Of a DNA stretch of 64,000 bases, positions 7,099-56,289 are shown in pieces. Source of the DNA: a virus (Duplodnaviria; Caudoviricetes); IMG/VR virus record IMGVR_UViG_3300021399_000113, positions 74,607 to 138,606 of that record; one strand, written 5' to 3'. A model generated the notes under the pieces. It did no database searches and was not told the origin of the DNA. It was given only the letters and a program-made list of their open reading frames with translations. A program made the position numbers and the translations under genes. Within the stretch, counting starts at the first letter, position 1. Each line of letters starts with the position of its first letter.

Positions 7099-7430
7099 TG
7101 AATATGAAAAATACAAAAACAATTAAGACACTTTTTACAGCAATGATTATCGTTCCTATTGTAATTCTTCTTCTCACTTCTTTACTCTGTTCAGCCCCTA
7201 TCTCACCTTGCCTTTGGATAATGGGTCAGATTGCAATTGGGGCTATCTGTATGGGTGCGTATAAGACAATAGACAGCTTTGCAGTTAATTCTGTCATTAC
7301 AATCCTTGCTGTACTGCTTTATGTCTACCTTCCTCCCATCTCTATCTTTTTCACAATATATTGGGTGCTTGATTTTATCCCCTTTGTATTGGGTGCTTAT
7401 GTAGGCAACAAGATATTGACAATTAAGTAA
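7098..7430 (+). CDS. Small multi-pass membrane protein
   Basis: About four hydrophobic segments. Confidence 0.7.
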   Translation: MNMKNTKTIKTLFTAMIIVPIVILLLTSLLCSAPISPCLWIMGQIAIGAICMGAYKTIDSFAVNSVITILAVLLYVYLPPISIFFTIYWVLDFIPFVLGAYVGNKILTIK

Positions 7431-16974: not shown

Positions 16975-18339
16975 ATGAATAATCTAATGTTAGAAAATGC
17001 AAACAGATTAGACGAGATTTATAGCACCTATGGCAGACACTATATTCCTCTCACAGAGGCTAATCTTAATCGCATTATTAAGGGACATGATTCTACTGGG
17101 TATGGTGTGTTAAGTGCCTCACGTGCTAACCTCTCAAAAGAAGAAAACGATAAACGCACAAAAGAACTTAAATCAAAAATAAATTCTTTGGGCTACTCTC
17201 ACGTTCCTGTGCTGGGTGGGTATAGAGAAGAGGGAGAGCCTAAAGCAAGTCTGGAAAAGTCCCTTATTGTTTATCCTTATAATTTACGCACAAAGGAATA
17301 TGCAGACCTCAATAAGTTTAAGGATGACCTTGTTGAGTTGGGCAAACATTACAATCAAGACACAGTAATGATTAAAGAACCCGACAAGAACCCTACTTAT
17401 ATTCGCTGTGCAGATAGACAAGCCGATATGGAATTTGATGATGGCTACACTACAAATGATACAGAAGAACCATTCTTTACAGCGCTTAAAAAGTGGAGTG
17501 ATTCTTCTCTTAATCGTAAAAGCCATAATTGGGATAAGGGCAAGCCTCAGAGATTTACACTTAAATCAAATGCTGTTTTTGAGGCATATATTGACCAACA
17601 ACCTATGAGTATTACATCAGAAGTACCTCCAAGATATGCTCTTGGTGAACTTTTTAAGGTTGGATTTACTGGGGAACTGACTGACACATTAAATGAGTCC
17701 AATAATTTCAGAAGAGTTAAACAAGCATTGTGGGGTGACCCTACTGGAAAGATTAGAACCTTTGCTATATTAACTGGTGAAAATCCTCTGGCTTGGGGAA
17801 ATGCTACAGATGATGAAGTTCTCGACCGATACAAAAAATGGCTTAATAATCCAAAAGAATACAATGATAAGATTACTAAGGGACTAAAGGCAGAACTTGT
17901 ACAGAAGTCATTAGAGCAGAATAAAGATAAAGCTTTAAGATATGGTGGGTTTAACTATGCTAAGATTAAAGGAAAGTATGGAGACATCGAGCACTCATTG
18001 ATGATTTTCAATATATCAAAAGAGGATGCTGAACACTTAGCAAGAGCCTATGGGCAAGAGAGTTTCTTTTTTGGTAAGGTATATCCATCATACACACATG
18101 TGGCTTATTACAAAACAACAAATGCTTGTGCAACATATAAATTGATAGAAATATCTGATGTTACAACTAAAGAAGATGGGGATGATTTCTTTAGTAAGTA
18201 TGGTTTTAAGTACAAGATTAACATGAGGGAATTTGGTGATGATGTAATCCCAGTAAAGAATGAGAATGAATTTCAAGAGAGTCTTACTGCACCAATGTTT
18301 CAAAGTAGAGCATCACATCGTAGAGAAGCATACAGATAA
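16975..18339 (+). CDS. Tandem two-domain SAM-lyase-like protein (T3 gp0.3 SAMase/Svi3-3-like)
   Basis: Domain 1: VLSASRANL..EN..R...GGYRE...EKS...LG..YNQDTV. Domain 2: FAILTGENP...GKY...EHS...LARAYGQES. Each starts after an LxE site. Confidence 0.65.
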   Translation: MNNLMLENANRLDEIYSTYGRHYIPLTEANLNRIIKGHDSTGYGVLSASRANLSKEENDKRTKELKSKINSLGYSHVPVLGGYREEGEPKASLEKSLIVYPYNLRTKEYADLNKFKDDLVELGKHYNQDTVMIKEPDKNPTYIRCADRQADMEFDDGYTTNDTEEPFFTALKKWSDSSLNRKSHNWDKGKPQRFTLKSNAVFEAYIDQQPMSITSEVPPRYALGELFKVGFTGELTDTLNESNNFRRVKQALWGDPTGKIRTFAILTGENPLAWGNATDDEVLDRYKKWLNNPKEYNDKITKGLKAELVQKSLEQNKDKALRYGGFNYAKIKGKYGDIEHSLMIFNISKEDAEHLARAYGQESFFFGKVYPSYTHVAYYKTTNACATYKLIEISDVTTKEDGDDFFSKYGFKYKINMREFGDDVIPVKNENEFQESLTAPMFQSRASHRREAYR

Positions 18340-31148: not shown

Positions 31149-31170
31149 ATTAAATAAATTAATTGTATAG

Positions 31171-31203
31171 ATAAGAGGATAAACAAATTTATCCTCTTAT
31201 TTT
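31171..31203 (+). terminator. Hairpin directly after TTGTATA motif
   Basis: ATAAGAGGATAAA-CAAA-TTTATCCTCTTAT-TTT. Confidence 0.65.
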
Positions 31204-31226: not shown

Positions 31227-32357
31227 ATGTCGATTGTATATAATAGAACTGTTTGGCAGAACTATGTATCGGCTCTTTCAGAAACACCCCTTAACAATAT
31301 AGAATTAGGTATTACTGAGGTTGTTAATGTACTTAATACGTTGGGAATTCAGCCATCACATATAGACTTTATTGAAAGTCTTATGCAAGGTGTGGGTAAT
31401 TCATCTACTCCAATGTACATTGCAAGTGATGGAACACCACAAGAAGTTGGGCAAATCAGCGTTGCACATGGTGGTACTGGTCTTAACACATTAGCATCTG
31501 GTAAGTTGCTTGTCGGTAATGGAACTAATGCAGTTAATTTTAGAGAGATTCAAAATGAAACTGGTGGGGCAGTTCCAATTACTGAGTCTGTGAAAATTCC
31601 AACTGCAAATACTATTAAAAGATGGAATGGTGCTCATGATTCAAATAACAATTCTAATCTTGAGTATGTTAAGTTGGGAAAACTTGGAGACGCTTGTATT
31701 AAGGCTGTATCGACACAAGGTGTTAACAATGATGGAGATAATCTTGTCACAGAGGCACAAGTTAAAGCGTTTGTTGAGGGTAAAGGATATATCACAGCGT
31801 ATGTCGATACAAAGAATACTGCTGGAGCATTAAATAAAAATTCAACAAAGTTATATCTTGTTGGAGCAGAATCACAAACAGCAAATCCACAGACATCTAC
31901 AAATTCCAAGAACTATGTGGGAACAGATGGTCATTTATATTCTAACGAGAAACAAGTTGTAAATGTATCAGATACACAAACAGTATCTAATAAAACATTT
32001 ACTAACAATACTTATGAAGGATATTCGTTAGGAGATGCTTGTGCTAAAGGTGTAGACAGTACTGATGGTGGAACTGCTGGCTCTAATGCTCTTATAACAT
32101 CTGGAGCAGTTAACTCATTAAAACAACAGACAATTACAAGCATTTCTTTTCCATCAGCGGGTGTTTGTAGAGTTGTTCAGAATGGTCAATCATCTGATTT
32201 ACCATTTTCTACATCAGCACAAGCTACATATATTGGTAGTACTGCCCCAAGTAATACACAGTTGGTGTGGATAGATAGTGCTAATGGGTACATACTTAAG
32301 GTTTATGATAGTACACAGCAACGCTGGATTACACCGAGAGCAGTATGGGGTAACTAA
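31227..32357 (+). CDS. Tail-fibre-like virion protein
   Basis: ISVAHGGTG..TL..GKLLVGNGT, repeated LGDAC.K.V, YIGSTAPSNT..VWID fibre motifs. Confidence 0.7.
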   Translation: MSIVYNRTVWQNYVSALSETPLNNIELGITEVVNVLNTLGIQPSHIDFIESLMQGVGNSSTPMYIASDGTPQEVGQISVAHGGTGLNTLASGKLLVGNGTNAVNFREIQNETGGAVPITESVKIPTANTIKRWNGAHDSNNNSNLEYVKLGKLGDACIKAVSTQGVNNDGDNLVTEAQVKAFVEGKGYITAYVDTKNTAGALNKNSTKLYLVGAESQTANPQTSTNSKNYVGTDGHLYSNEKQVVNVSDTQTVSNKTFTNNTYEGYSLGDACAKGVDSTDGGTAGSNALITSGAVNSLKQQTITSISFPSAGVCRVVQNGQSSDLPFSTSAQATYIGSTAPSNTQLVWIDSANGYILKVYDSTQQRWITPRAVWGN

Positions 32358-32360
32358 TAA

Positions 32361-33734
32361 ATGATTACAGCAGATGAATTAATTCAATTAAGAGAAAAAG
32401 TAAAAAATGAAATAGATAGACGATGTTCATTCAATGGATATGGTAGAAATCTGCTTAACCCTTCTCTGTATGAATGGGGAACAGAAGGACAGCCAGTTCA
32501 AGGTGGAATGGTCTATGGTTCACAAGGTAAGACTGTAGTTGATTCATTATTAACAATTGCAGATATAGGTAATTTACGAAATGTTCAGCCCAATGAGCCA
32601 ATCCCAGATTCTTTTGATAATGATACATTAAGTGGAATTGTAGATTTATTAGCAGAAGAAGGACAGCATGATGAAAACTCATCTTGTCGTGGAGCATGTA
32701 CAGGACTTTGTGTGGGTACATGTGCTGGTGATTGTACGAGTGGGTGCGTGAGTGACTGTACGGGGGGTTGTGGCTCAACGTGTACTGGTACTTGTGGTGG
32801 AGATTGTACAGGTGCTTGTAGTGGTGTATGTACATCTTGTTCATCTGAGTGTGTAGATTCATGTATAGATGGATGCACATCTACTTGTGGAAGTGAGTGC
32901 AGTGGACATTGCGGAAATAGCTGTACGGGAGGATGTGGTACTACTTGTACAGGAAATTGTGCATCTACTTGTAGTGCAAGTTGCAGTGGTGGCTGTTCCG
33001 CTTCATGTGGTGGCTGTAGTGGCTGTGATGGCTGTAGTGGCTGTGGCAGTGGCTGTGATAGAGGATGTAGCGGTTGCAGTGGTGGCTGTTATGGTTGCGG
33101 TGGCTGTGGCAGTAGCTGTGATGGCTGTAGTGGCGGTTGCTATGGGGCGACAGGGGACACAACGTGTGGTTCTTCTTGTTCAGCCGAGTGTGCGGGCTGC
33201 CAAGGAGGCTGTGCTGGCGACTGTGATGGCAGTTGCTATTGGTCTTGCGGTGGTTGCAGTGGTGGTTGCACAGGTAGGTGTACAGGCTGTAGCAGTTGCA
33301 GTGGTGGTTGTGATGGTTGCGGTGACTGTGATGGCAGTTGTAGCGGTTGCAGTAGCTGTAGTGGATGTAGTGGATGTAGCGGTAGCTGTGATGGGTGTTC
33401 ATCGGGATGTAAAACATCTTGTTCTGTAACTTGTGGTAGTAACTGCACATCTTGTAGCGCAGTTTGTGCTAATAACTGTGGAACAGATTGTGCTGGGTCA
33501 TGTTCTAATGTTTGTACACAATCTTGTGGTGGTGGTTGTCAAGGAACTTGTTCTAATGGCTGTGATAGCGGTTGTAATCTTTGTACAAGTGCTTGTACTA
33601 CCTCTTGTACAAGTTGTAATGCAACGTGTGAAAATTCTTGTATGACCACTTGTGAAAGTACTTGCTACTCCAATTGTACAAGCGGATGTTATGGTGGTGC
33701 AACAGGTACAGTGATTGGTCCTGTTATCGGCTGA
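32361..33734 (+). CDS. Very long CXXX/CXX-repeat Cys-rich protein (radical SAM target, TIGR04114-like repeats)
   Basis: About 108-aa non-repetitive N-domain followed by about 89 Cys spaced every 3-4 residues. Confidence 0.85.
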
Positions 33735-33759
33735 CAAAACACAGAATATGTTGTATAAT
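33731..33759 (+). promoter_or_regulatory. Promoter (sigmaA-like, overlapping TTGTATA motif) for the maturase genes
   Basis: CTGACA-17-TATAAT. Confidence 0.6.
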
Positions 33760-33818
33760 AGATACGTAGAAATAGAAACTGACAAATTAAATTTTTGATT
33801 TAAGGAGAAACACACATA

Positions 33819-34157
33819 ATGTTTACAAAAGTAATTATTATTGATAGTGAAGTAAGAGATTACATTGAGCGACTTGGACATGAGGTTGATGGAGCAAAAG
33901 AACTTATTGCTTACATGATTGATAGTGGAAGAGATATTAAAACAGATACTTTTAAGGAATATCATGATGAGTACGCCAAAGCCTTAGCCGCTTATAATAT
34001 TGCAAAAGAAGAGCTGGAAAATAAGTATATTCCAAAGGCACTGCTTGGCAGAAATGCAGGTACAGAATGGGAACTCAAGTTTGAAACAGCGGAACTTACC
34101 ATTACAAATAACGGTAAGACGATTACAGAGGAAGAGTTTAATTCATTTTTTAATTAA
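33819..34157 (+). CDS. CXXX-repeat modification system accessory protein (TIGR04116-like)
   Basis: Position between target and maturase; RDYIERL...WELKFET.ELTI pattern. Confidence 0.6.
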   Translation: MFTKVIIIDSEVRDYIERLGHEVDGAKELIAYMIDSGRDIKTDTFKEYHDEYAKALAAYNIAKEELENKYIPKALLGRNAGTEWELKFETAELTITNNGKTITEEEFNSFFN

Positions 34158-34172
34158 TATTTAATTTAACCT

Positions 34173-34212
34173 TCATTCCTAACTTGAATTAAATCGAGTT
34201 AGGAATGATTTT
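34173..34212 (+). terminator. Hairpin/attenuator upstream of the radical SAM gene
   Basis: TCATTCCTAACTTGA...TCGAGTTAGGAATGA-TTTT. Confidence 0.55.
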
Positions 34213-34224
34213 ACTGGAGATAGA

Positions 34225-36690
34225 ATGTCAAGGAACAGAAAGAAATTTGAACAATATCAAGATTTAATTGCAAGGTTATATCCCGAATTAACTAAACATA
34301 ATAGTAGTGATGACCAGTCTCACGGAGCAGAAAGAGTGCTGACAAGGACTGTCACTCTACAGGTGACTGACAAGTGCAATCTTGCTTGTAGTTATTGCTA
34401 CCAAATAAATAAGGGAGTAAGAAGAATGTCGCTTGAAACTGCAAAGAAGTTCATTGACCTGCTTCTTACAGGAGAAAAAGGTTTTAGCAATTATGTTGAC
34501 CCGTCATTCTCTCCTGCAATCGTTCTTGAATTTATCGGTGGTGAACCTTTTCTTGAAATAGAGTTAATTGACAAGGTTTGTGATTATTTCGTAGATAAAG
34601 CAATTGAATTAAGGCATCCTTGGGCAAAGAATTTTAGATTTAGTATCTGTTCGAATGGAGTTCTCTATAGAGACCCAAAGGTACAGAAGTTCTTAAACAA
34701 GTGGAAGAATAAATTATCATTCTCTATAACAATAGATGGTGACAAAGAATTACATGACACTTGCCGAGTATTCCCAGATGGGAGTCCTTCTTATGACATT
34801 GCCATAGAGGGTGCTAAGGATTGGATGGCAAAAGGAAATTATATGGGAAGTAAGATTACTATTGCTCCGCAAAATCTTCATTGTTTCAGTAGAGCACTTA
34901 AGCATATGATTTCTTTAGGGTATGATGAGATTAATTGTAACTGTGTTTATGAGGATGTATGGAAACCCGAACATGGGAAACAGTTATATGACCAATTAAA
35001 GGAAACAGCAGATTATCTTTTAGATAATAATTTAGAAAAAGATATATATGTATCTATTTTAGCAGAAGATAATTTTCATCCAAAGGATGTGAATGATTTA
35101 CAGACTTGGTGTTGGGGAAAAGGCACACCAATTTTAACCACGAAAGGATATAAACCAATAGAGGATATAGCGGTTGGTGATGAGGTATATACTCCGCAGG
35201 GGCATATTAAACCTGTCATTAATGTTATGAGTCATGTAGCTGATAATTGTGTGGAGATTAGCGGTTGTGGTATTCTGCCTATGATATGCACTAAAGACCA
35301 TAGATTGTGGGCTTCTCCGTTTGATTATCGGGGTTGGAAAAATACCCCTCATTATAAACCTTTTGGTGCTTACAGCATTGAAGAAATCATTGATACAAAA
35401 TATCCTACTCGAAGTAGAATTAAGACAGGTGTATTGCCTAATAATCGTACAGTTCATGTAGACCCTAATGTAGCTTACTTACTTGGTCGTACAATAGGTG
35501 ATGGTTGGGTAGCCGATGATATACCCGCTGTATGTTGTGGCAAAGATGAACTGTCCGAAGTGATAAAATGTTTCAATGATGCTAAAATTGCATATCGTAT
35601 TTCAGAGTCAAATACCACATATGATTTTTATGCAACAAAAAAACTTAATATGGGTAACGATAATTATGCTCTTTATAGTAAGTTATGTTTAGATATGGGG
35701 CACAAATCAGTAAATAAACACATTCCTTCCGAGTGCTTTAATTGGGATGATGAATCCCTTGAGGCATTATTACAAGGTTATGTGAGTGCAGATGGGCACA
35801 TTAGAGCAAATCGAAATATATATGTCATTAAAACTTCATCAAAAAGACTTGCAGAAGATGTTATGTTAGTGTGCCGTACACTTGGATATAACCCTATGTG
35901 TGATACCCCTCAACGGGTTAACGGGAAAACCGAAACAATTATGGGTCGGTTGACGCACAGAAATGGGGACGTATTTACGGTGCGTTGGAGTTTCGAAAAG
36001 CACAATGGTAAATTCTACTATGAGGATGAAGACGGGATGTTTACATCTAAACTTCGGGTTGTGTCAGCACCCACTCAAGCTGTGTATAACATAACAGTAG
36101 CCGATGACCATTCCTACATTGCGGGTTCACTTGCCTCTAAAAATTGTGGGGGACTTGGTGACATGCTTGCCTGTGACCCCGATGGTAAATTATTCCCTTG
36201 TATTAGATATATGGAAAGTTCATTAGGGAACACTGTCCCTCCTGTTATTATTGGAGATGTCGATAATGGTGTGTGCCAAAGACCGCACGAACAGAAGTTA
36301 CTCTGTGATATGTGTGCGGTCAATAGACGTACATATAATACAGATGAATGTTTCTATTGCCCTATTTATCAAGGGTGTGCAGAATGCTCCGCTTATAACT
36401 ATCAGTTAAGTGGTGGAGATTTCAACAAACGTGCAACGTGTATCTGCATTACACATAAAGCAAGATGCTTAGCAAATGCTTACTATTGGTCAAAATTTTA
36501 CGAAAAGAACGAACCTCAGAGCAAATTTAAGTTTTATATACCAGACGAGTGGGCATTACAAGTTATTGACAAAGATGAATTAGATATGATAAAATCATTA
36601 CCGAACATAGAGCTTTGTCAAACAACATGGCAAGAATTGAGGGACAAAGACTTAAATGGTGAAGATAAGCAAAAAGAAGAAGTTCAGTAA
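34225..36690 (+). CDS. Radical SAM/SPASM peptide maturase (CXXX-repeat target family, TIGR04115-like), intein-containing
   Basis: CNLACSYC, FIGGEPFL, SITIDG; SPASM CGG...DG.LFPC...CFYCP...GC..C...C. Confidence 0.92.
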   Translation: MSRNRKKFEQYQDLIARLYPELTKHNSSDDQSHGAERVLTRTVTLQVTDKCNLACSYCYQINKGVRRMSLETAKKFIDLLLTGEKGFSNYVDPSFSPAIVLEFIGGEPFLEIELIDKVCDYFVDKAIELRHPWAKNFRFSICSNGVLYRDPKVQKFLNKWKNKLSFSITIDGDKELHDTCRVFPDGSPSYDIAIEGAKDWMAKGNYMGSKITIAPQNLHCFSRALKHMISLGYDEINCNCVYEDVWKPEHGKQLYDQLKETADYLLDNNLEKDIYVSILAEDNFHPKDVNDLQTWCWGKGTPILTTKGYKPIEDIAVGDEVYTPQGHIKPVINVMSHVADNCVEISGCGILPMICTKDHRLWASPFDYRGWKNTPHYKPFGAYSIEEIIDTKYPTRSRIKTGVLPNNRTVHVDPNVAYLLGRTIGDGWVADDIPAVCCGKDELSEVIKCFNDAKIAYRISESNTTYDFYATKKLNMGNDNYALYSKLCLDMGHKSVNKHIPSECFNWDDESLEALLQGYVSADGHIRANRNIYVIKTSSKRLAEDVMLVCRTLGYNPMCDTPQRVNGKTETIMGRLTHRNGDVFTVRWSFEKHNGKFYYEDEDGMFTSKLRVVSAPTQAVYNITVADDHSYIAGSLASKNCGGLGDMLACDPDGKLFPCIRYMESSLGNTVPPVIIGDVDNGVCQRPHEQKLLCDMCAVNRRTYNTDECFYCPIYQGCAECSAYNYQLSGGDFNKRATCICITHKARCLANAYYWSKFYEKNEPQSKFKFYIPDEWALQVIDKDELDMIKSLPNIELCQTTWQELRDKDLNGEDKQKEEVQ
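35110..36144 (+). mobile_element. Intein (345 aa) with LAGLIDADG homing endonuclease in the radical SAM maturase
   Basis: Starts CWGKGTPILT; block B CTKDHRLW; YLLGRTIGDG and LLQGYVSADG; ends VYNITV.DDHSYIAG...SKN|C; splicing restores QTW-CGG. Confidence 0.88.
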
Positions 36691-36886
36691 TTTCATAGTA
36701 ATACTTGCAATAGTTTCTATTATAGCATATACTGCTGTGTGTTTAGCAATACTGCTTACTGGTGGAAGTTTAGAGGGGGTTGAATCCCTTACTGAAAATT
36801 GGTATAATTTCTGGACAACAGAAGTGTTTGCACTTGCTTGTATTAAAACGTTTAAAGTAATAAGAAAGAGTGACGATGATGAATAG
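36656..36886 (+). CDS. Small membrane protein (holin-like)
   Basis: KKKK followed by two TM segments. Confidence 0.55.
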   Translation: MVKISKKKKFSNFIVILAIVSIIAYTAVCLAILLTGGSLEGVESLTENWYNFWTTEVFALACIKTFKVIRKSDDDE

Positions 36887-38146: not shown

Positions 38147-38740
38147 ATGAATATGAGATTTAAATTAGTAGAAAATTTTACATTAACTGAGGGCAGTGGG
38201 TTATCCCGTATCTGGCAATATACTCATAACAATCAAAATTTTGCTATAATCGGCACACAAGACAAAGACACCAAAAAGGATAGGACTAACGAGCTAACGT
38301 CCTTGCTTCGTGATATGATGGATAATCAAGTAAGAATGAAGAAGACTGTAGGCAAACCAATGATTACCTACAAAAAGTTAGAGGGGCATTATATTTATGA
38401 CGATGGAACGCAGGGGACTGAAAATTCTTTCTTGGTTAACAATATAACTAAAGACGAGGCATTAGAGTTAGGAAGGGCAGTAAATCAAGAAAGTATCTTA
38501 TGGAAAGACGATGACTTCTTTGGATATATTTATTGCTCAGATGGTCATCCAGATATGACGTTTTCGAGAGACAATAAGAATATGAGTTTCAATAAAGACG
38601 ATGTATATGCCTTTGGCTCAAGGCTTAAAAGCAAACATAATGAGGGGCAGGGGTTTACCTTTATTGCTGAACATTATGTGTATGATAACTCTAAGAAATC
38701 ACGTAAAAAAGAAGTGCTATTTAAGCTTCATGCAGAATAA
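38147..38740 (+). CDS. SAM-lyase-like protein with MRFKLVE..LTE leader
   Basis: LTE|GSGLSRI..FAII...EGHY...ENSFLV.NI....A..LG...NQESILW. Confidence 0.6.
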   Translation: MNMRFKLVENFTLTEGSGLSRIWQYTHNNQNFAIIGTQDKDTKKDRTNELTSLLRDMMDNQVRMKKTVGKPMITYKKLEGHYIYDDGTQGTENSFLVNNITKDEALELGRAVNQESILWKDDDFFGYIYCSDGHPDMTFSRDNKNMSFNKDDVYAFGSRLKSKHNEGQGFTFIAEHYVYDNSKKSRKKEVLFKLHAE

Positions 38741-42845: not shown

Positions 42846-45800
42846 ATGATAAATATAAATACTGAACAATTTAATAATTTATCGGCAGAAGAACAAAAAG
42901 AAGTCGTTAAGATATTAAACGAGTATGCAGAAAAAGGTGCTTCAGTAACATTCGATAATCTTTTATATGAGGATTATAAAGAAATACCAGTAGATATAGA
43001 AACCTTTATTACAGATGATAGATATTTAGGTAAGGCTTGGAAAGATACTGAGAACCATATAAAGTTGTACCCATTCTGGCTTGAACAACTTAAAAAGTTA
43101 TTTCCAACTAATCTTGATACCGCATACAACACTCTGCTTGAAAGCGGAGCAAGGGGAATTGGTAAAGCACAACCTTTATATTCTAAATTACTCACTCCAA
43201 ATGGCTTCATTACAATGAAAGATGTCACTGTTGGCAGTTTGGTTTATGGGGAAGATGGTAAGCCCCATAAGGTTACTCATATCTTTCCACAAGGGGAGAA
43301 AGATGTGTATGAGGTTAGGTTTAGTGATAACTCTACAACACGTTGCTGTAAAGAGCATTTATGGACAGTTATTCAAAAATATAACCATAATAGAGAAACC
43401 ACAATTACCCTTGAAGATATTATGAATAGAGGGCTTAGGACTAATCCAACTAAGCATGGATGGACTGCTTGTAGATTTGGAATTCCTATAACTGCCCCAG
43501 TTGAGTTTGAGCATAGGGATGTGTTTATATCTCCTTATACCCTTGGAGTACTTATTGGTGATGGTCATATTTGTGGTGGAAACACTTGCTTTACTTCAAT
43601 CGACTCAGAGATTGTTGATAGGGTGACCTCTGAAATACTTCCTAATGGATATGTTTTATCAAGGTATGAAGACTCTTATAGTATTGTAAATGCTGATAAA
43701 TCCCATAAAGGGAAGATAAATAATGACAATAAATATAAACAAGCTATTCATGATTTAAAACTTGATGTGAAGTCTTATGAGAAGTTTATACCAGAAGATT
43801 ATTTATTAACTGATGTAAACAGTCGTATTCAATTATTACAGGGGTTAATGGACACTGATGGCTATGTGACAAAGGGTGGCTATTTAGTTTATTATACTAC
43901 AAGTGAGAGACTAAGAGATGACTTTATTTTCTTAGTTCAATCGTTAGGTGGTACTGCTCCTTGCAGAATTAAAAAGGGTAAATATAAAAATACTAATGGA
44001 GAAGTTGTTGAGTGTAGGGACTGTTATGAAATAACTGTAAATTTACCTTCATCAATCTCACCTTGTTCATTAACCAGAAAACTTATTAGATTAAATAATA
44101 ATAAAAAAGAACCATTTAGAACTATACATGAAATTACCTATGTAGGAAAAGAAGAGTGTCAGTGCATATTGATAGATAGTGATAAGCACTTGTATCTAAC
44201 TGATAATCTTATAGTGACTCATAACTCTGAGGTCGCCTGTGGCTGTGCAATGGCATATCTTATGTATAGAGTAATGTGCCTTAAAAATCCTCTTGAGTTT
44301 TATCATCTAAAACCAACAGAAAAAATTGTGTTCGCATTTATGAATATTAAGAAAGAGTTGTCAAAAGAAATTGCCATAAGTAAATTTCAGAAAACAATTC
44401 AGTTATCTCCTTGGTTTATGGCAAGGGGCACTATGACACAATTTGAAAATGCACCCTATTGGAATCCTCCAAGTGACATTAGTATTGTTATTGGTTCACA
44501 GTCAGATGACGTTATTGGTCAGCCAATATTCTGTGCGTTTTTCGATGAAATATCCTTTGTGCGCAATCAAGATATAGATAAGCAGAAAAAGAAAGCACTT
44601 GATATGATTGACACTGCTCTTGGTGGTATGCGAACAAGATTTATTCACGAAGGTAAAAATCCTACCCTTTTGATTGTTGCATCATCAAAGAGAAGCGAAC
44701 AGTCTTTCATGGAATCATATATTAAGACTAAATCAGAGACTGAAGGTAACTCTACTCTTGTCGTAGATAAGCCAGTTTGGGAAGTAAAACCACAAGGTAC
44801 ATATAAGCCAATTACCTTTAAAGTCGGATTAGGTAATAAGTTCCTTGAGAGTGTTGTTATTCCAGATGGAGCAGATGTTTGGGAATATAAATCCAAGGGA
44901 TACACCATTATAGATGTTCCCATTGATTTTAAAGCAACGTTTATAGAAAATATAAATAGAGCTTTATGTGACTATGCTGGTATATCTTCTTTCTCAGCCA
45001 ATAAATATTTCTCTGGCGAAGTTGTTGCTGAGAATATATTAGATTTTATCCATAATGCAATGCCAGAACTTATTACAGTAGGCAATATGGATAAAGTACA
45101 ATATAAAGATTACTTTGATATGACCAAAATACCAAGTGAATATAAATATAAACCTTTGTATATACATTTGGATATGTCTGTATCTGGAGATACTACTGGT
45201 ATCTGTGGTACTTGGATTATAGGTAAGAAACCAACTACTGAAGGTGATGCTGGAAAAGATTTATTATTCAGACTTGCTTTTGGATTTGCGGTAAGAGCAC
45301 CAAAAGGACAGCAAATCTCATTTGAGAAGAACAGAAACTTTATCAGATGGTTAAGGGAGCAAGGTTTTAATATTGGAGAAATATCAGCCGATACATTCCA
45401 GTCCTATGATTTATTACAGATATTACAGAGTGAGGGATTTAATACCACCATTCTTTCAGTGGATAGAGTTGACCCAGAAAGTCACATCTGTAAACCATAT
45501 CAATTCTTACGCTCAACAGTGTATGAACATAGGTTACAGATGTTTAAATGTGATAGATTATTTGATGAGTTTGTAGAAGTTGAAAGAAATAACAGCACAG
45601 GTAAAATTGACCACCCTACTGGCGGTAGAAAGGACTTACTTGATGCTGTGTGTGGTTCAGTGTTTACTGCATCATCTCATGCAGAAGAGTACGCATATAA
45701 TTTCGGAGAAGATTTGGATTTAGCTATTCAAACTAATACAGCTAATCCAATGATAACTCAACAACAGATACAAATGAATTTGGATGATATTCTTAAATCA

Positions 45801-45914
45801 ATAAGACAAAGACAAGACGCAGTAAATAAACAAGTAGAAACAACAGTAGGCATAAATAGCCGCAATCTTGCCAATGACTTATACTTAACAAGTCAAGGTA
45901 TTGTTGCGATATAG
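42846..45914 (+). CDS. terL: Terminase large subunit (intein-containing)
   Basis: Walker A SGARGIGK|S, Walker B FFDE, RNase H-type HLDMS, DHP..G.KD..DA. Confidence 0.92.
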   Translation: MININTEQFNNLSAEEQKEVVKILNEYAEKGASVTFDNLLYEDYKEIPVDIETFITDDRYLGKAWKDTENHIKLYPFWLEQLKKLFPTNLDTAYNTLLESGARGIGKAQPLYSKLLTPNGFITMKDVTVGSLVYGEDGKPHKVTHIFPQGEKDVYEVRFSDNSTTRCCKEHLWTVIQKYNHNRETTITLEDIMNRGLRTNPTKHGWTACRFGIPITAPVEFEHRDVFISPYTLGVLIGDGHICGGNTCFTSIDSEIVDRVTSEILPNGYVLSRYEDSYSIVNADKSHKGKINNDNKYKQAIHDLKLDVKSYEKFIPEDYLLTDVNSRIQLLQGLMDTDGYVTKGGYLVYYTTSERLRDDFIFLVQSLGGTAPCRIKKGKYKNTNGEVVECRDCYEITVNLPSSISPCSLTRKLIRLNNNKKEPFRTIHEITYVGKEECQCILIDSDKHLYLTDNLIVTHNSEVACGCAMAYLMYRVMCLKNPLEFYHLKPTEKIVFAFMNIKKELSKEIAISKFQKTIQLSPWFMARGTMTQFENAPYWNPPSDISIVIGSQSDDVIGQPIFCAFFDEISFVRNQDIDKQKKKALDMIDTALGGMRTRFIHEGKNPTLLIVASSKRSEQSFMESYIKTKSETEGNSTLVVDKPVWEVKPQGTYKPITFKVGLGNKFLESVVIPDGADVWEYKSKGYTIIDVPIDFKATFIENINRALCDYAGISSFSANKYFSGEVVAENILDFIHNAMPELITVGNMDKVQYKDYFDMTKIPSEYKYKPLYIHLDMSVSGDTTGICGTWIIGKKPTTEGDAGKDLLFRLAFGFAVRAPKGQQISFEKNRNFIRWLREQGFNIGEISADTFQSYDLLQILQSEGFNTTILSVDRVDPESHICKPYQFLRSTVYEHRLQMFKCDRLFDEFVEVERNNSTGKIDHPTGGRKDLLDAVCGSVFTASSHAEEYAYNFGEDLDLAIQTNTANPMITQQQIQMNLDDILKSIRQRQDAVNKQVETTVGINSRNLANDLYLTSQGIVAI
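43167..44225 (+). mobile_element. Ala-start class-3 intein (353 aa) with LAGLIDADG endonuclease in the terminase Walker A
   Basis: AQPLYS start; EHLW (Trp, block B), CQCI (Cys, block F), VTHN|S (Thr, block G); LGVLIGDG and LLQGLMDTDG. Confidence 0.9.
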
Positions 45915-54916: not shown

Positions 54917-54984
54917 AAATATGTGTGGGATTGTGGGGCTACACCCACACATTCTACACATATTTTTATATAAAAGGATTGTTT

Positions 54985-56289
54985 ATGGTCAAAGGACAAA
55001 TTGCATACAATAATGGCAATAGAATAATATTTTTGACTGAAGGCGAAGATATTCCAAAGGGATTTGTTCGTGGAGGATTACCTCGTATGTCTGCTGAAAG
55101 ATATAAACAGGCGGGTAGGAAATCCTCGCAGACACAAAAAGATGCTTGGAATAACTTATCACAGGAAGAAAAAGACATAAGACTTTCCTCTTTACATGAT
55201 AGAATGTTTACTGATGAAGTAAATGCTAAACGTGCTGAATCATGTAGACATACGATGTCATTAAAGAGTGAAGAAGAATTGTCTGCTATTTCTGAAAAGA
55301 AAAGCGAATCACTTAAAAGAACTTGGGCAACAAAAACCTCTATTGATAGAGAGAATAGAAGAATAAAGACAAAAGAGACTTGCATAGAGAAATATGGAGT
55401 AGAGTTTCCTTGTCAACTTCCTCAATGTGGATTATCTAATAGTGGTACACATACCAAACCAAATGAAACATTTGCTCGTTTATTAGATAAATATAATCTT
55501 GAGTATGAGCGTGAGTTCCCTTTAAGTAAATATAAATATGATTTTAAAGTTGGTAATATCTTATTTGAAATAAACCCCACGGCTACACATAATTCTACTT
55601 ATGGAATTTATTATAGGGATGGATTAGATAAAAAGTATCATTACAACAAAACCAAACTTGCTTTTGATAGTGGTTATCATTGTGTCAATGTTTGGGATTG
55701 GGATGATGCAGAACTTCTGATTAAAACCTTTTGTATTCCTAAAGAAAGGATTTATGCTCGGAAGTGTGATATTAAGGAAGTCACACAAACAGATGCTGTT
55801 ACATTTATAAATAACAATCATTTACAAGGATATGCTAAAGATAGTATTAGACTTGGATTGTATTATAATAATGAGTTAGTATCTATTATGACTTTTGATA
55901 AGCCTCGCTATAATCATAAATACGATTATGAACTTGTTAGATATTGTTCAAGTAAATCAATCATAGGTGGGGCAAATAAATTATTCAAACACTTCCTTGA
56001 TAGATACAAACCAACTTCTGTTATATCATATTGTGATAGAAGTAAATTTAATGGTAATGTGTATATTGAATTAGGATTTACTGCCGAGAAGATTTCTGTG
56101 GGAAAGCATTGGTATAATATAAACACTAAAAAGCATATCACAGATAATCTTTTAAGACAAAGAGGGTTTGACCAATTGTTTGATACCAACTATGGTAAAG
56201 GAACTTCTAATCGTGATTTAATGATACAGCATGGCTTTGTTGAAGTGTATGATGCGGGACAACAAAGATATGTTTATTATCACATATAA
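54985..56289 (+). CDS. Freestanding Hef-like homing endonuclease (PD-(D/E)xK plus GNAT-like C-domain)
   Basis: KYDF...FEIN...H...VWDW; YARKC...F...HLQG...YEL.RY...GGA.KL...SYCDR. Confidence 0.75.
   Translation: MVKGQIAYNNGNRIIFLTEGEDIPKGFVRGGLPRMSAERYKQAGRKSSQTQKDAWNNLSQEEKDIRLSSLHDRMFTDEVNAKRAESCRHTMSLKSEEELSAISEKKSESLKRTWATKTSIDRENRRIKTKETCIEKYGVEFPCQLPQCGLSNSGTHTKPNETFARLLDKYNLEYEREFPLSKYKYDFKVGNILFEINPTATHNSTYGIYYRDGLDKKYHYNKTKLAFDSGYHCVNVWDWDDAELLIKTFCIPKERIYARKCDIKEVTQTDAVTFINNNHLQGYAKDSIRLGLYYNNELVSIMTFDKPRYNHKYDYELVRYCSSKSIIGGANKLFKHFLDRYKPTSVISYCDRSKFNGNVYIELGFTAEKISVGKHWYNINTKKHITDNLLRQRGFDQLFDTNYGKGTSNRDLMIQHGFVEVYDAGQQRYVYYHI

Follow-up and report, generated by a model that had tools for sequence, protein, structure and literature searches.

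We analysed a 64,000-nucleotide stretch of DNA from an uncultured phage (hereafter the window), which is the last 64 kb of the 138.6-kb IMG/VR record IMGVR_UViG_3300021399_000113 (positions 74,607 to 138,606), a record estimated to be 83% complete. The window contains a four-gene unit that encodes a tail-fibre-like protein, a 457-residue protein with a long ladder of cysteines (the ladder protein), a small helper and a radical S-adenosylmethionine (SAM) enzyme with a SPASM region (the maturase). An earlier note on this DNA had described these four genes, and we found all four open reading frames (ORFs), co-oriented on the plus strand, at the positions given in Table 1. Judged from sequence comparisons, the unit is a real and well-conserved phage variant of a radical-SAM system that has been catalogued but not studied, the CXXX-repeat system. 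With moderate confidence we read it as a phage-type system that makes a stapled, non-exported ladder rod of the tail-fibre apparatus. In the mechanism that we propose, the intein interrupting the maturase would splice out, and the resulting 476-residue radical SAM/SPASM enzyme would act together with the 112-residue helper on the 89-Cys ladder. The modification would most likely consist of many short rings in which Cys sulfur is joined to carbon by a thioether, by analogy with PapB, the SCIFF maturases and QhpD. The N-terminal domain of the ladder protein (N-domain), together with the invariant first rungs of the ladder (15 residues), would probably be the recognition or start site. The product would stay in the cell and most likely become a stiff, protease-resistant rod of variable length in the tail-fibre apparatus, working with or on the preceding fibre protein. 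We infer strongly that the ladder is the substrate of the maturase, because the two invariably co-occur. Our confidence in the thioether chemistry, which is argued from analogy, is moderate, and so is our confidence in a location of the ladder protein in the virion or tail, which is argued from gene context and domain content.

The maturase ORF encodes an 821-residue radical SAM/SPASM enzyme that carries a 345-residue intein. Against TIGR04115 it scored 437.2 bits (cut-off 350) in two stretches, corresponding to model positions 1-255 and 248-359, and this bears out the earlier proposal of a CXXX-repeat maturase aimed at a very large protein. The next-best family matches were PapB (166 bits, family cut-off 340), CcpM, the SCIFF maturase and QhpD (91 bits). 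The radical SAM motif CX3CX2C is present as C51, C55 and C58 (CNLACSYC), and so are the conserved Cys columns of the C-extein (alignment A7). The earlier typing of the unit by TIGR04114, TIGR04115 and TIGR04116 stood for the enzyme, which is of the TIGR04115 family; it did not stand for the other two proteins, as TIGR04114 is the model of the target repeat and TIGR04116 that of the helper, and both the ladder and the helper fall below the respective cut-offs.

The intein occupies residues 296-640 of the maturase. Its first residue is Cys and its last Asn, and the SPASM region begins with the conserved Cys at +1. Precisely residues 296-640 are absent in three homologues (L006, L009 and L052), and intein-less homologues read NW followed directly by CGGTG at this point, whereas the maturases of L005 and L156 carry inteins at the identical site. 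Since the intein splits the enzyme at a conserved SPASM Cys, the maturase is predicted to need splicing for its activity.

Several further observations concern the maturase. Phage-type maturases have in common an N-terminal extension of about 35 residues (..EQYQD.IARLYPE..; maturase residues 1-39, window positions 34225-34340) that the cellular enzymes do not have, and this extension may be where the helper or the N-domain docks. The gene of a 76-residue predicted membrane protein (36656-36886), which matches phrog_33302 (unknown function), overlaps the end of the maturase gene. Two ORFs elsewhere in the window (16975-18339 and 38147-38740) both match phrog_12788 (unknown function), and the former also matches a PHROG annotated as 'SAM-dependent methyltransferase'. 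The earlier note labelled these two ORFs as SAM-lyase-like, a candidate assignment; if it were right, the maturase, which depends on SAM, would face competition from SAM breakdown. The Salmonella SPN3US-like phages were considered as relatives and set aside: their maturase is just 27% identical, and the small genes annotated upstream of it look like wrong-frame calls.

A member of the helper family adjoins every related maturase, and in the window the helper gene lies directly upstream of the maturase gene. The window helper gave no direct match to any family model, and none to TIGR04116 (cut-off 50 bits) even at E 10, and a single one of 15 phage helpers gave the sole match (E 0.058); a bona fide bacterial TIGR04116 protein (L137:12579-12848) scored 69 bits. 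When jackhmmer was seeded with a bacterial TIGR04116 protein, it recruited the phage helpers. Moreover, the comparison of phage helpers with bacterial TIGR04116 helpers by hhalign gave a probability of 89% and an E value of 2e-6 over 86 columns, which is nearly the full length. By these profile comparisons the helper is a distant TIGR04116 relative. Its fold, predicted from 56 sequences with a predicted local distance difference test score (pLDDT) of 93.7, consists of a strand, a long helical hairpin and two strands, and fold searches in the PDB returned generic helical hairpins only (Z up to 6.8).

The ladder protein contains 90 Cys, one in the N-domain and 89 within residues 109-443, so the earlier figure of about 89 Cys in a 457-residue protein is right for the ladder part and one short for the whole protein. 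The Cys residues are spaced by 4 (64 times), 3 (23 times) or 9 (once), and the residues between them are almost only Gly, Ser, Thr, Asp, Ala or Asn. Lys and Arg occur in the N-domain and are nearly absent from the ladder. The 15 residues at the junction of N-domain and ladder are nearly invariant across 12 relatives (alignment A2), and the end of the ladder is conserved even in distant relatives (C..SC.TTC.STCYS.C...C[FY]G.ATG). A profile search with the N-domain retrieved 593 representatives (50% clustering), 339 of them at an E value of 1e-10 or better, and the domain was nearly always N-terminal. Its predicted fold has three main helices and a short C-terminal helix of low confidence (pLDDT 69), and a search of the PDB with this model gave no match. 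The target-repeat model TIGR04114 matched the ladder in a best stretch of 17 bits and five weaker ones, below the cut-off of 20; as the bacterial peptides that we tested also remained under the cut-off (16.8 bits), this model is weakly discriminating.

The repeat is open in several overlapping frames, on both strands, and automatic gene callers choose the wrong strand in the close relative L156, which would be expected if the ladder gene were no gene at all but a G/T-rich simple repeat open in one frame by chance. We regard this as next to impossible, and the comparative data rule it out. L156 is a sequencing-run assembly whose fibre protein is 79% identical to that of the window. It has the same four genes, and its ladder protein, with 141 Cys in 650 residues, ends as in the window. 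Between the two, the N-domain, about the first 27 and about the last 28 rungs are conserved and the middle expands in frame, from 90 to 141 Cys; the reading frame and every aligned Cys are kept. Counted by codon position, the nucleotide differences in the N-domain number 38 at the third position versus 15 and 10 at the others, and in the last 112 codons 49 versus 26 and 20. In addition, the conserved, non-repetitive N-domain is fused in frame to a ladder in hundreds of proteins, and changes in ladder length keep the frame. The third-position bias, the Cys conservation against L156 and the in-frame N-domain junction in relatives thus indicate that the ladder frame is a real coding frame and not a low-complexity accident. 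With its conserved ends and in-frame expansion of the middle, the ladder appears to behave like a shaft. A 'mirror-symmetric hairpin' around the CYGATGDTT break in the window ladder was also considered and rejected, as the break does not occur in L156, whose ladder is uninterrupted; from the sequence, the break is more plausibly what remains of a ladder end that was duplicated.

The same gene-calling problem affects the databases. Automatic calling on L156 chose the wrong strand over the ladder (1759-2904), and in Salmonella phage SEGD1 (L153; gp169 and gp170) the deposited Val/Ala/Leu-rich 'proteins' lie in the wrong frame or strand over cysteine-ladder DNA. Because callers and annotations pick the wrong frame or strand, true ladder genes are missing from many protein databases and the family is under-represented there. 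A word-based protein search with the N-domain gave no matches, which is partly explained by the wrong-strand calls over ladders. Nothing was found in DNA and protein searches of cultured-phage records with the ladder, or when viral contigs were scanned with a degenerate pattern of the N-domain. The ladder family was reached only through the search with the maturase and later through the N-domain profile.

Scans with the maturase N-extein yielded 66 loci from viral contigs and 77 from species-representative genomes. Redundancy was removed by collapsing helpers at 70% identity, which left 50 lineages, drawn from Clostridia genomes and viral contigs. Of these, 47 encode a protein containing 20 or more Cys, and 42 have a ladder protein with the same N-domain of about 108 residues. 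In half of the lineages (25/50) the gene immediately upstream ends in the C-terminal motif of the window fibre-like protein, which in relatives reads ...TAP..T.LLWIDT.NG..KYYNG..W....WG. The earlier note had held in advance that its proposal would fall if relatives did not have the unit linked to tail genes; this linkage recurs. The upstream genes with the motif encode proteins of 68 to 974 residues, several of which match PHROG tail-fibre, tail-collar or minor-tail families strongly; matches to tail-protein families also occur among the upstream genes of relatives. The genes that precede them are typical tail and baseplate genes. Where the upstream gene is without the motif, as in L005 and L045, it encodes another kind of fibre protein, and in two isolate genomes that we inspected the unit lies within apparent prophage tail and lysis regions. 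Isolates that have the phage-type unit in what seem to be prophage tail regions include Anaerolentibacter hominis CSJ-1, Neglectibacter timonensis SN17, Eubacterium pyruvativorans i6, Desnuesiella massiliensis mt10 and Anaerobacterium chartisolvens DSM 27016. The linkage to fibre genes in phages and prophages of gut Clostridia suggests that the phage enzymatically staples a tail appendage.

Some relatives of the ladder protein carry additional domains. In an abundant clade of gut phages of about 60 kb, the ladder (62 Cys) runs into a short Gly-rich junction, beyond which the protein has one of two or more unrelated C-terminal domains or no further domain, and such swapping is typical of receptor-binding proteins. 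These domains matched nothing in PHROG or NCBIfam, and a look-up in the ESM Atlas gave no lead for the one from L010. Another ladder relative (P0182) has an inserted module that matches PHROG families annotated as 'host range and adsorption', 'tail protein', 'tail fiber' and 'PblB-type receptor binding' with E values down to 3e-13, and Pfam CBM_4_9 weakly, below the cut-off. On a 183-kb phage contig (L157, 3582-9366) five consecutive ladder genes are followed by one helper and one maturase gene; two of the five ladder proteins have the N-domain and three are ladder-only, and one of those with the N-domain also bears a C-terminal domain of 400 residues (P0191). The ladder protein of the window ends shortly after the ladder, without the fused domains seen in relatives. 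Taken as sequence evidence, the domain fusions in relatives point to a role in adsorption or in the tail. Among about 45 near-identical contigs of about 60 kb (L009-L068) we also observed, near locus position 7100, that the Gly-rich junction after the ladder varies in length. The frame past the junction either continues into a C-terminal domain ending in ...FKITGI or ...HFNIKA, or stops and leaves the domain as a separate ORF. This variation could be cassette exchange together with slippage-type phase variation, or assembly noise.

The fibre-like protein itself had a weak PHROG tail-fibre match (E 1.2e-3) and no Pfam match. It has 208 partial homologues, a few of which carry PF03406 (phage tail fibre repeat) or PF13884 (endosialidase-chaperone). 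Stop-codon read-through joining the fibre-like and ladder proteins was considered, as the two ORFs are in frame in the window, but the fibre-like gene ends in TAA TAA and most relatives have the two ORFs in different frames, so this possibility was dropped. A docking prediction with three copies of the fibre C-terminus (alignment A6) and three copies of the ladder N-domain (alignment A2) scored 0.12 against a mark of 0.32 and decides neither way.

The bacterial CXXX-repeat system is catalogued in NCBIfam/TIGRFAMs (TIGR04115, TIGR04119, TIGR04116 and TIGR04114/04117), and we found no experimental study of it in the literature searched. The window unit is like this system in the core family of its maturase, in its distantly related helper, in a target with Cys at every third or fourth residue among small residues and in its adjacent, co-oriented genes; it is unlike it in the phage fibre-gene context and in the intein-split maturase. 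The loci from genomes separate cleanly into two types. Phage-type maturases are mostly 40-67% identical to that of the window and are linked to Lachnospiraceae, Oscillospiraceae and other Clostridia as hosts, whereas those of the cellular type, found in bacterial genomes, are 38-45% identical. The target of the phage type is a large ladder protein with an N-domain, that of the cellular type a peptide of 70-95 residues. Phage-type helpers fall below the TIGR04116 cut-off, whereas the cellular ones are true TIGR04116 proteins. The maturases of the phage type have about 440-480 residues, inteins aside, and stop about 300 residues short of the bacterial enzyme, which has 727 residues and a C-terminal TIGR04119 domain; no match to TIGR04119 was found in the whole 138.6-kb record, which is 83% complete. 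Cellular loci carry an ATP-binding cassette (ABC) exporter, and no exporter is seen in the phage type. In agreement with the earlier note, which saw no transporter or leader peptidase, we found neither among the neighbouring ORFs searched in the window. A ribosomally synthesised and post-translationally modified peptide (RiPP) would be made from a short leader-bearing precursor with a peptidase or exporter, whereas the target here has 457 residues and no peptidase or ABC transporter was found among those ORFs.

Among the characterised enzymes, the SCIFF maturases and QhpD make related Cys thioethers. QhpD, a radical SAM/SPASM enzyme, cross-links Cys to side-chain carbons in a protein subunit that is kept in a larger assembly and is not exported. 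The QhpD/QhpC pair differs from the window unit in its few links, in its target, a small subunit of a periplasmic enzyme without a repeat ladder, and in its unrelated biology. The PapB/PapA (freyrasin) system is alike in that PapB installs repeated Cys thioethers in short C-x-x-x-acceptor motifs (PMC12373016); the enzyme abstracts a hydrogen beside a carboxylate and joins the carbon to the Cys sulfur, giving Cys-to-Asp/Glu thioethers (PMC12373016). It is unlike the window system in that the window maturase scores far under the PapB cut-off and in that PapA, a short peptide with a leader, has six links, compared with the target of about 89 Cys here. Literature searches on phage ladder proteins, TIGR04115 chemistry, ranthipeptides in phage, and radical SAM combined with tail fibre found nothing relevant.

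Several findings weigh against a thioether-stapled rod in the tail-fibre apparatus. The tail sheath gene is about 29 kb downstream of the unit, which is flanked by genes for acidic proteins of unknown function and by packaging genes and is not part of any recognisable tail module. The fibre assignment of the 31227 gene is a sequence-based one, made from the weak PHROG match, the partial homologues and the shared C-terminal motif. PapB depends on Asp or Glu as acceptors, and these are scarce in the ladder (17 Asp and 5 Glu for its 89 Cys); a different acceptor, and with it a different chemistry, may therefore be used here, and if a thioether formed at every rung the acceptor would have to be a residue other than Asp or Glu. 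The topology of the helper model does not look like that of the PqqD-like RiPP recognition element of most RiPP systems, a winged helix with a three-stranded sheet, and this predicted fold would leave substrate recognition without explanation. Finally, our searches found neither a virion proteome covering such a protein nor a cultured phage carrying it.

Two alternatives accept that the ladder is modified or structural and differ from our reading on its place or on its chemistry. The modified ladder protein could be absent from the particle, being made late and either released at lysis or kept inside the cell, in which case the neighbouring fibre gene would reflect shared late expression; possible roles would then be those of a large factor that resembles a bacteriocin or binds biofilm or matrix, of a sponge for thiols or metals, or of a protein that counters host defence. 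The position of the unit in the window outside any recognisable tail module would agree with this, as would the exported peptides of the cellular relatives and the lack of a structural match between the N-domain and known fibre parts. We nevertheless consider it unlikely, for the ladder protein has no signal peptide and the unit no exporter, the fibre-motif adjacency in 25/50 lineages includes small prophages with a compact tail module, and ladder proteins occur with fused adsorption-type modules or with swappable C-terminal domains. Alternatively, the ladder could be part of the tail or virion and carry another chemistry, such as Calpha-linked sactionine bonds, oxidation of Cys or Ser, preparation of metal or iron-sulfur sites, or mainly disulfides. 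Rods held by disulfides are known from the cysteine-rich beta-helices of insect antifreeze proteins, to which the ladder can be likened. The few acidic acceptors, the lack of published TIGR04115 chemistry in the literature searched and the absence from phage maturases of the TIGR04119 domain of the cellular enzymes fit such a chemistry; among the family matches of the maturase, the nearest characterised SPASM enzymes with Cys-rich substrates (PapB, QhpD and the SCIFF maturase) all make Cys thioethers, and we give this alternative, too, a low probability.

If a stapled, non-exported ladder rod of the tail-fibre apparatus is indeed the product, the ladder protein would be the first viral structural protein with a RiPP-type radical modification, and the TIGR04115 family and its helper would gain a first function. 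Virions are known to carry covalent modifications of a different sort, for example the isopeptide bonds of the HK97 capsid. A ladder that is cross-linked and on the tail would mean that radical-SAM peptide chemistry has been recruited for virion material. Such a rod might help to explain the protease resistance of gut-phage fibres, and it would offer a genetically encoded, cross-linked protein rod of programmable length. More tentatively, phages of gut anaerobes could build part of their host-recognition apparatus from a radical-SAM-stapled thioether ladder rod whose length is tuned by repeat expansion; we hold this broader proposal to be plausible but somewhat doubtful.

The features of the unit are collected in Table 1. 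The earlier note had assigned separate promoter classes to the two halves of the unit, a late motif to the target and a promoter of its own at 33731 to the maturase genes. This distinction was not upheld: the TTGTATA motif precedes both the fibre-like gene (31163) and the helper gene (33751), and since the copy at 33751 lies inside the 33731-33759 site, the promoter types of the two halves are not distinguished. The motif is mildly enriched in the window (30 copies versus 21 ± 4 expected). The hairpin in front of the maturase gene may be a partial terminator that lowers the expression of the enzyme relative to the helper and the target.

Table 1. Positions of the genes, protein regions and putative signals of the four-gene unit, numbered from the first nucleotide of the window.
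Feature	Position	Strand	Basis or remark
TTGTATA motif (31163-31169), then at once a hairpin (13-bp stem, 4-nt loop), upstream of the fibre-like gene	31163-31203	+	sequence read directly
Fibre-like gene, 376 residues	31227-32357	+	ends TAA TAA, ladder-gene ATG directly after
Fibre C-terminal motif (YIGSTAP..T.LVWID..NG..K.Y....W.....WG)	32229-32354	+	alignments A1, A6
Ladder gene	32361-33734	+
Ladder-protein N-domain (residues 1-108)	32361-32684	+	without signal peptide; alignment A2, 25-50% identity to 12 relatives
Cysteine ladder (residues 109-443, 89 Cys)	32685-33689	+	first (13-residue stretch) and last rungs conserved, middle variable in length
Conserved post-ladder tail (C-Y-G-G-A-T-G...) and stop codon	33690-33734	+	C[FY]G.ATG closes the ladder in most relatives
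Sigma-70-like site CTGACA-17-TATAAT, containing TTGTATA at 33751	33731-33759	+	consensus match alone
Helper, 112 residues, distant relative of TIGR04116 (CXXX repeat peptide modification system protein)	33819-34157	+	profile-profile comparison, jackhmmer
Hairpin (15-bp stem) then TTTT, just upstream of the maturase ribosome-binding site	34173-34208	+	sequence read
Maturase gene	34225-36690	+
Maturase N-extein (residues 1-295), radical SAM motif CNLACSYC	34225-35109	+	TIGR04115 positions 1-255; alignment A7
Intein (residues 296-640), LAGLIDADG homing endonuclease	35110-36144	+	Pfam Hint_2, LAGLIDADG_3, Hom_end
Maturase C-extein, SPASM region from the conserved Cys of W-C-G-G	36145-36690	+	TIGR04115 positions 248-359; alignment A7 Cys columns

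All large ORFs of the window are on the plus strand. Genes for a DNA ligase, a methyltransferase and a Dda-like helicase come first, followed by those for acidic proteins of unknown function and by the four-gene unit. After the unit come the genes for the large terminase (interrupted), the portal, the protease, the major head protein and a homing endonuclease, and finally the tail sheath gene at the contig end. Because of this gene order, including the tail sheath gene at the contig end, the source phage is a myovirus, and most of its tail module lies outside the record. The large terminase ORF (42846-45914) encodes 1022 residues, of which about 70-350 also match DnaC-like and primase PHROGs; this suggests that an element such as an intein or endonuclease has inserted into another essential gene of the phage. 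A gene for a 454-residue homing/HNH endonuclease (54925-56289) lies directly 3' of the major head protein gene. This endonuclease gene and the two interrupted genes make the genome seem rich in selfish elements.

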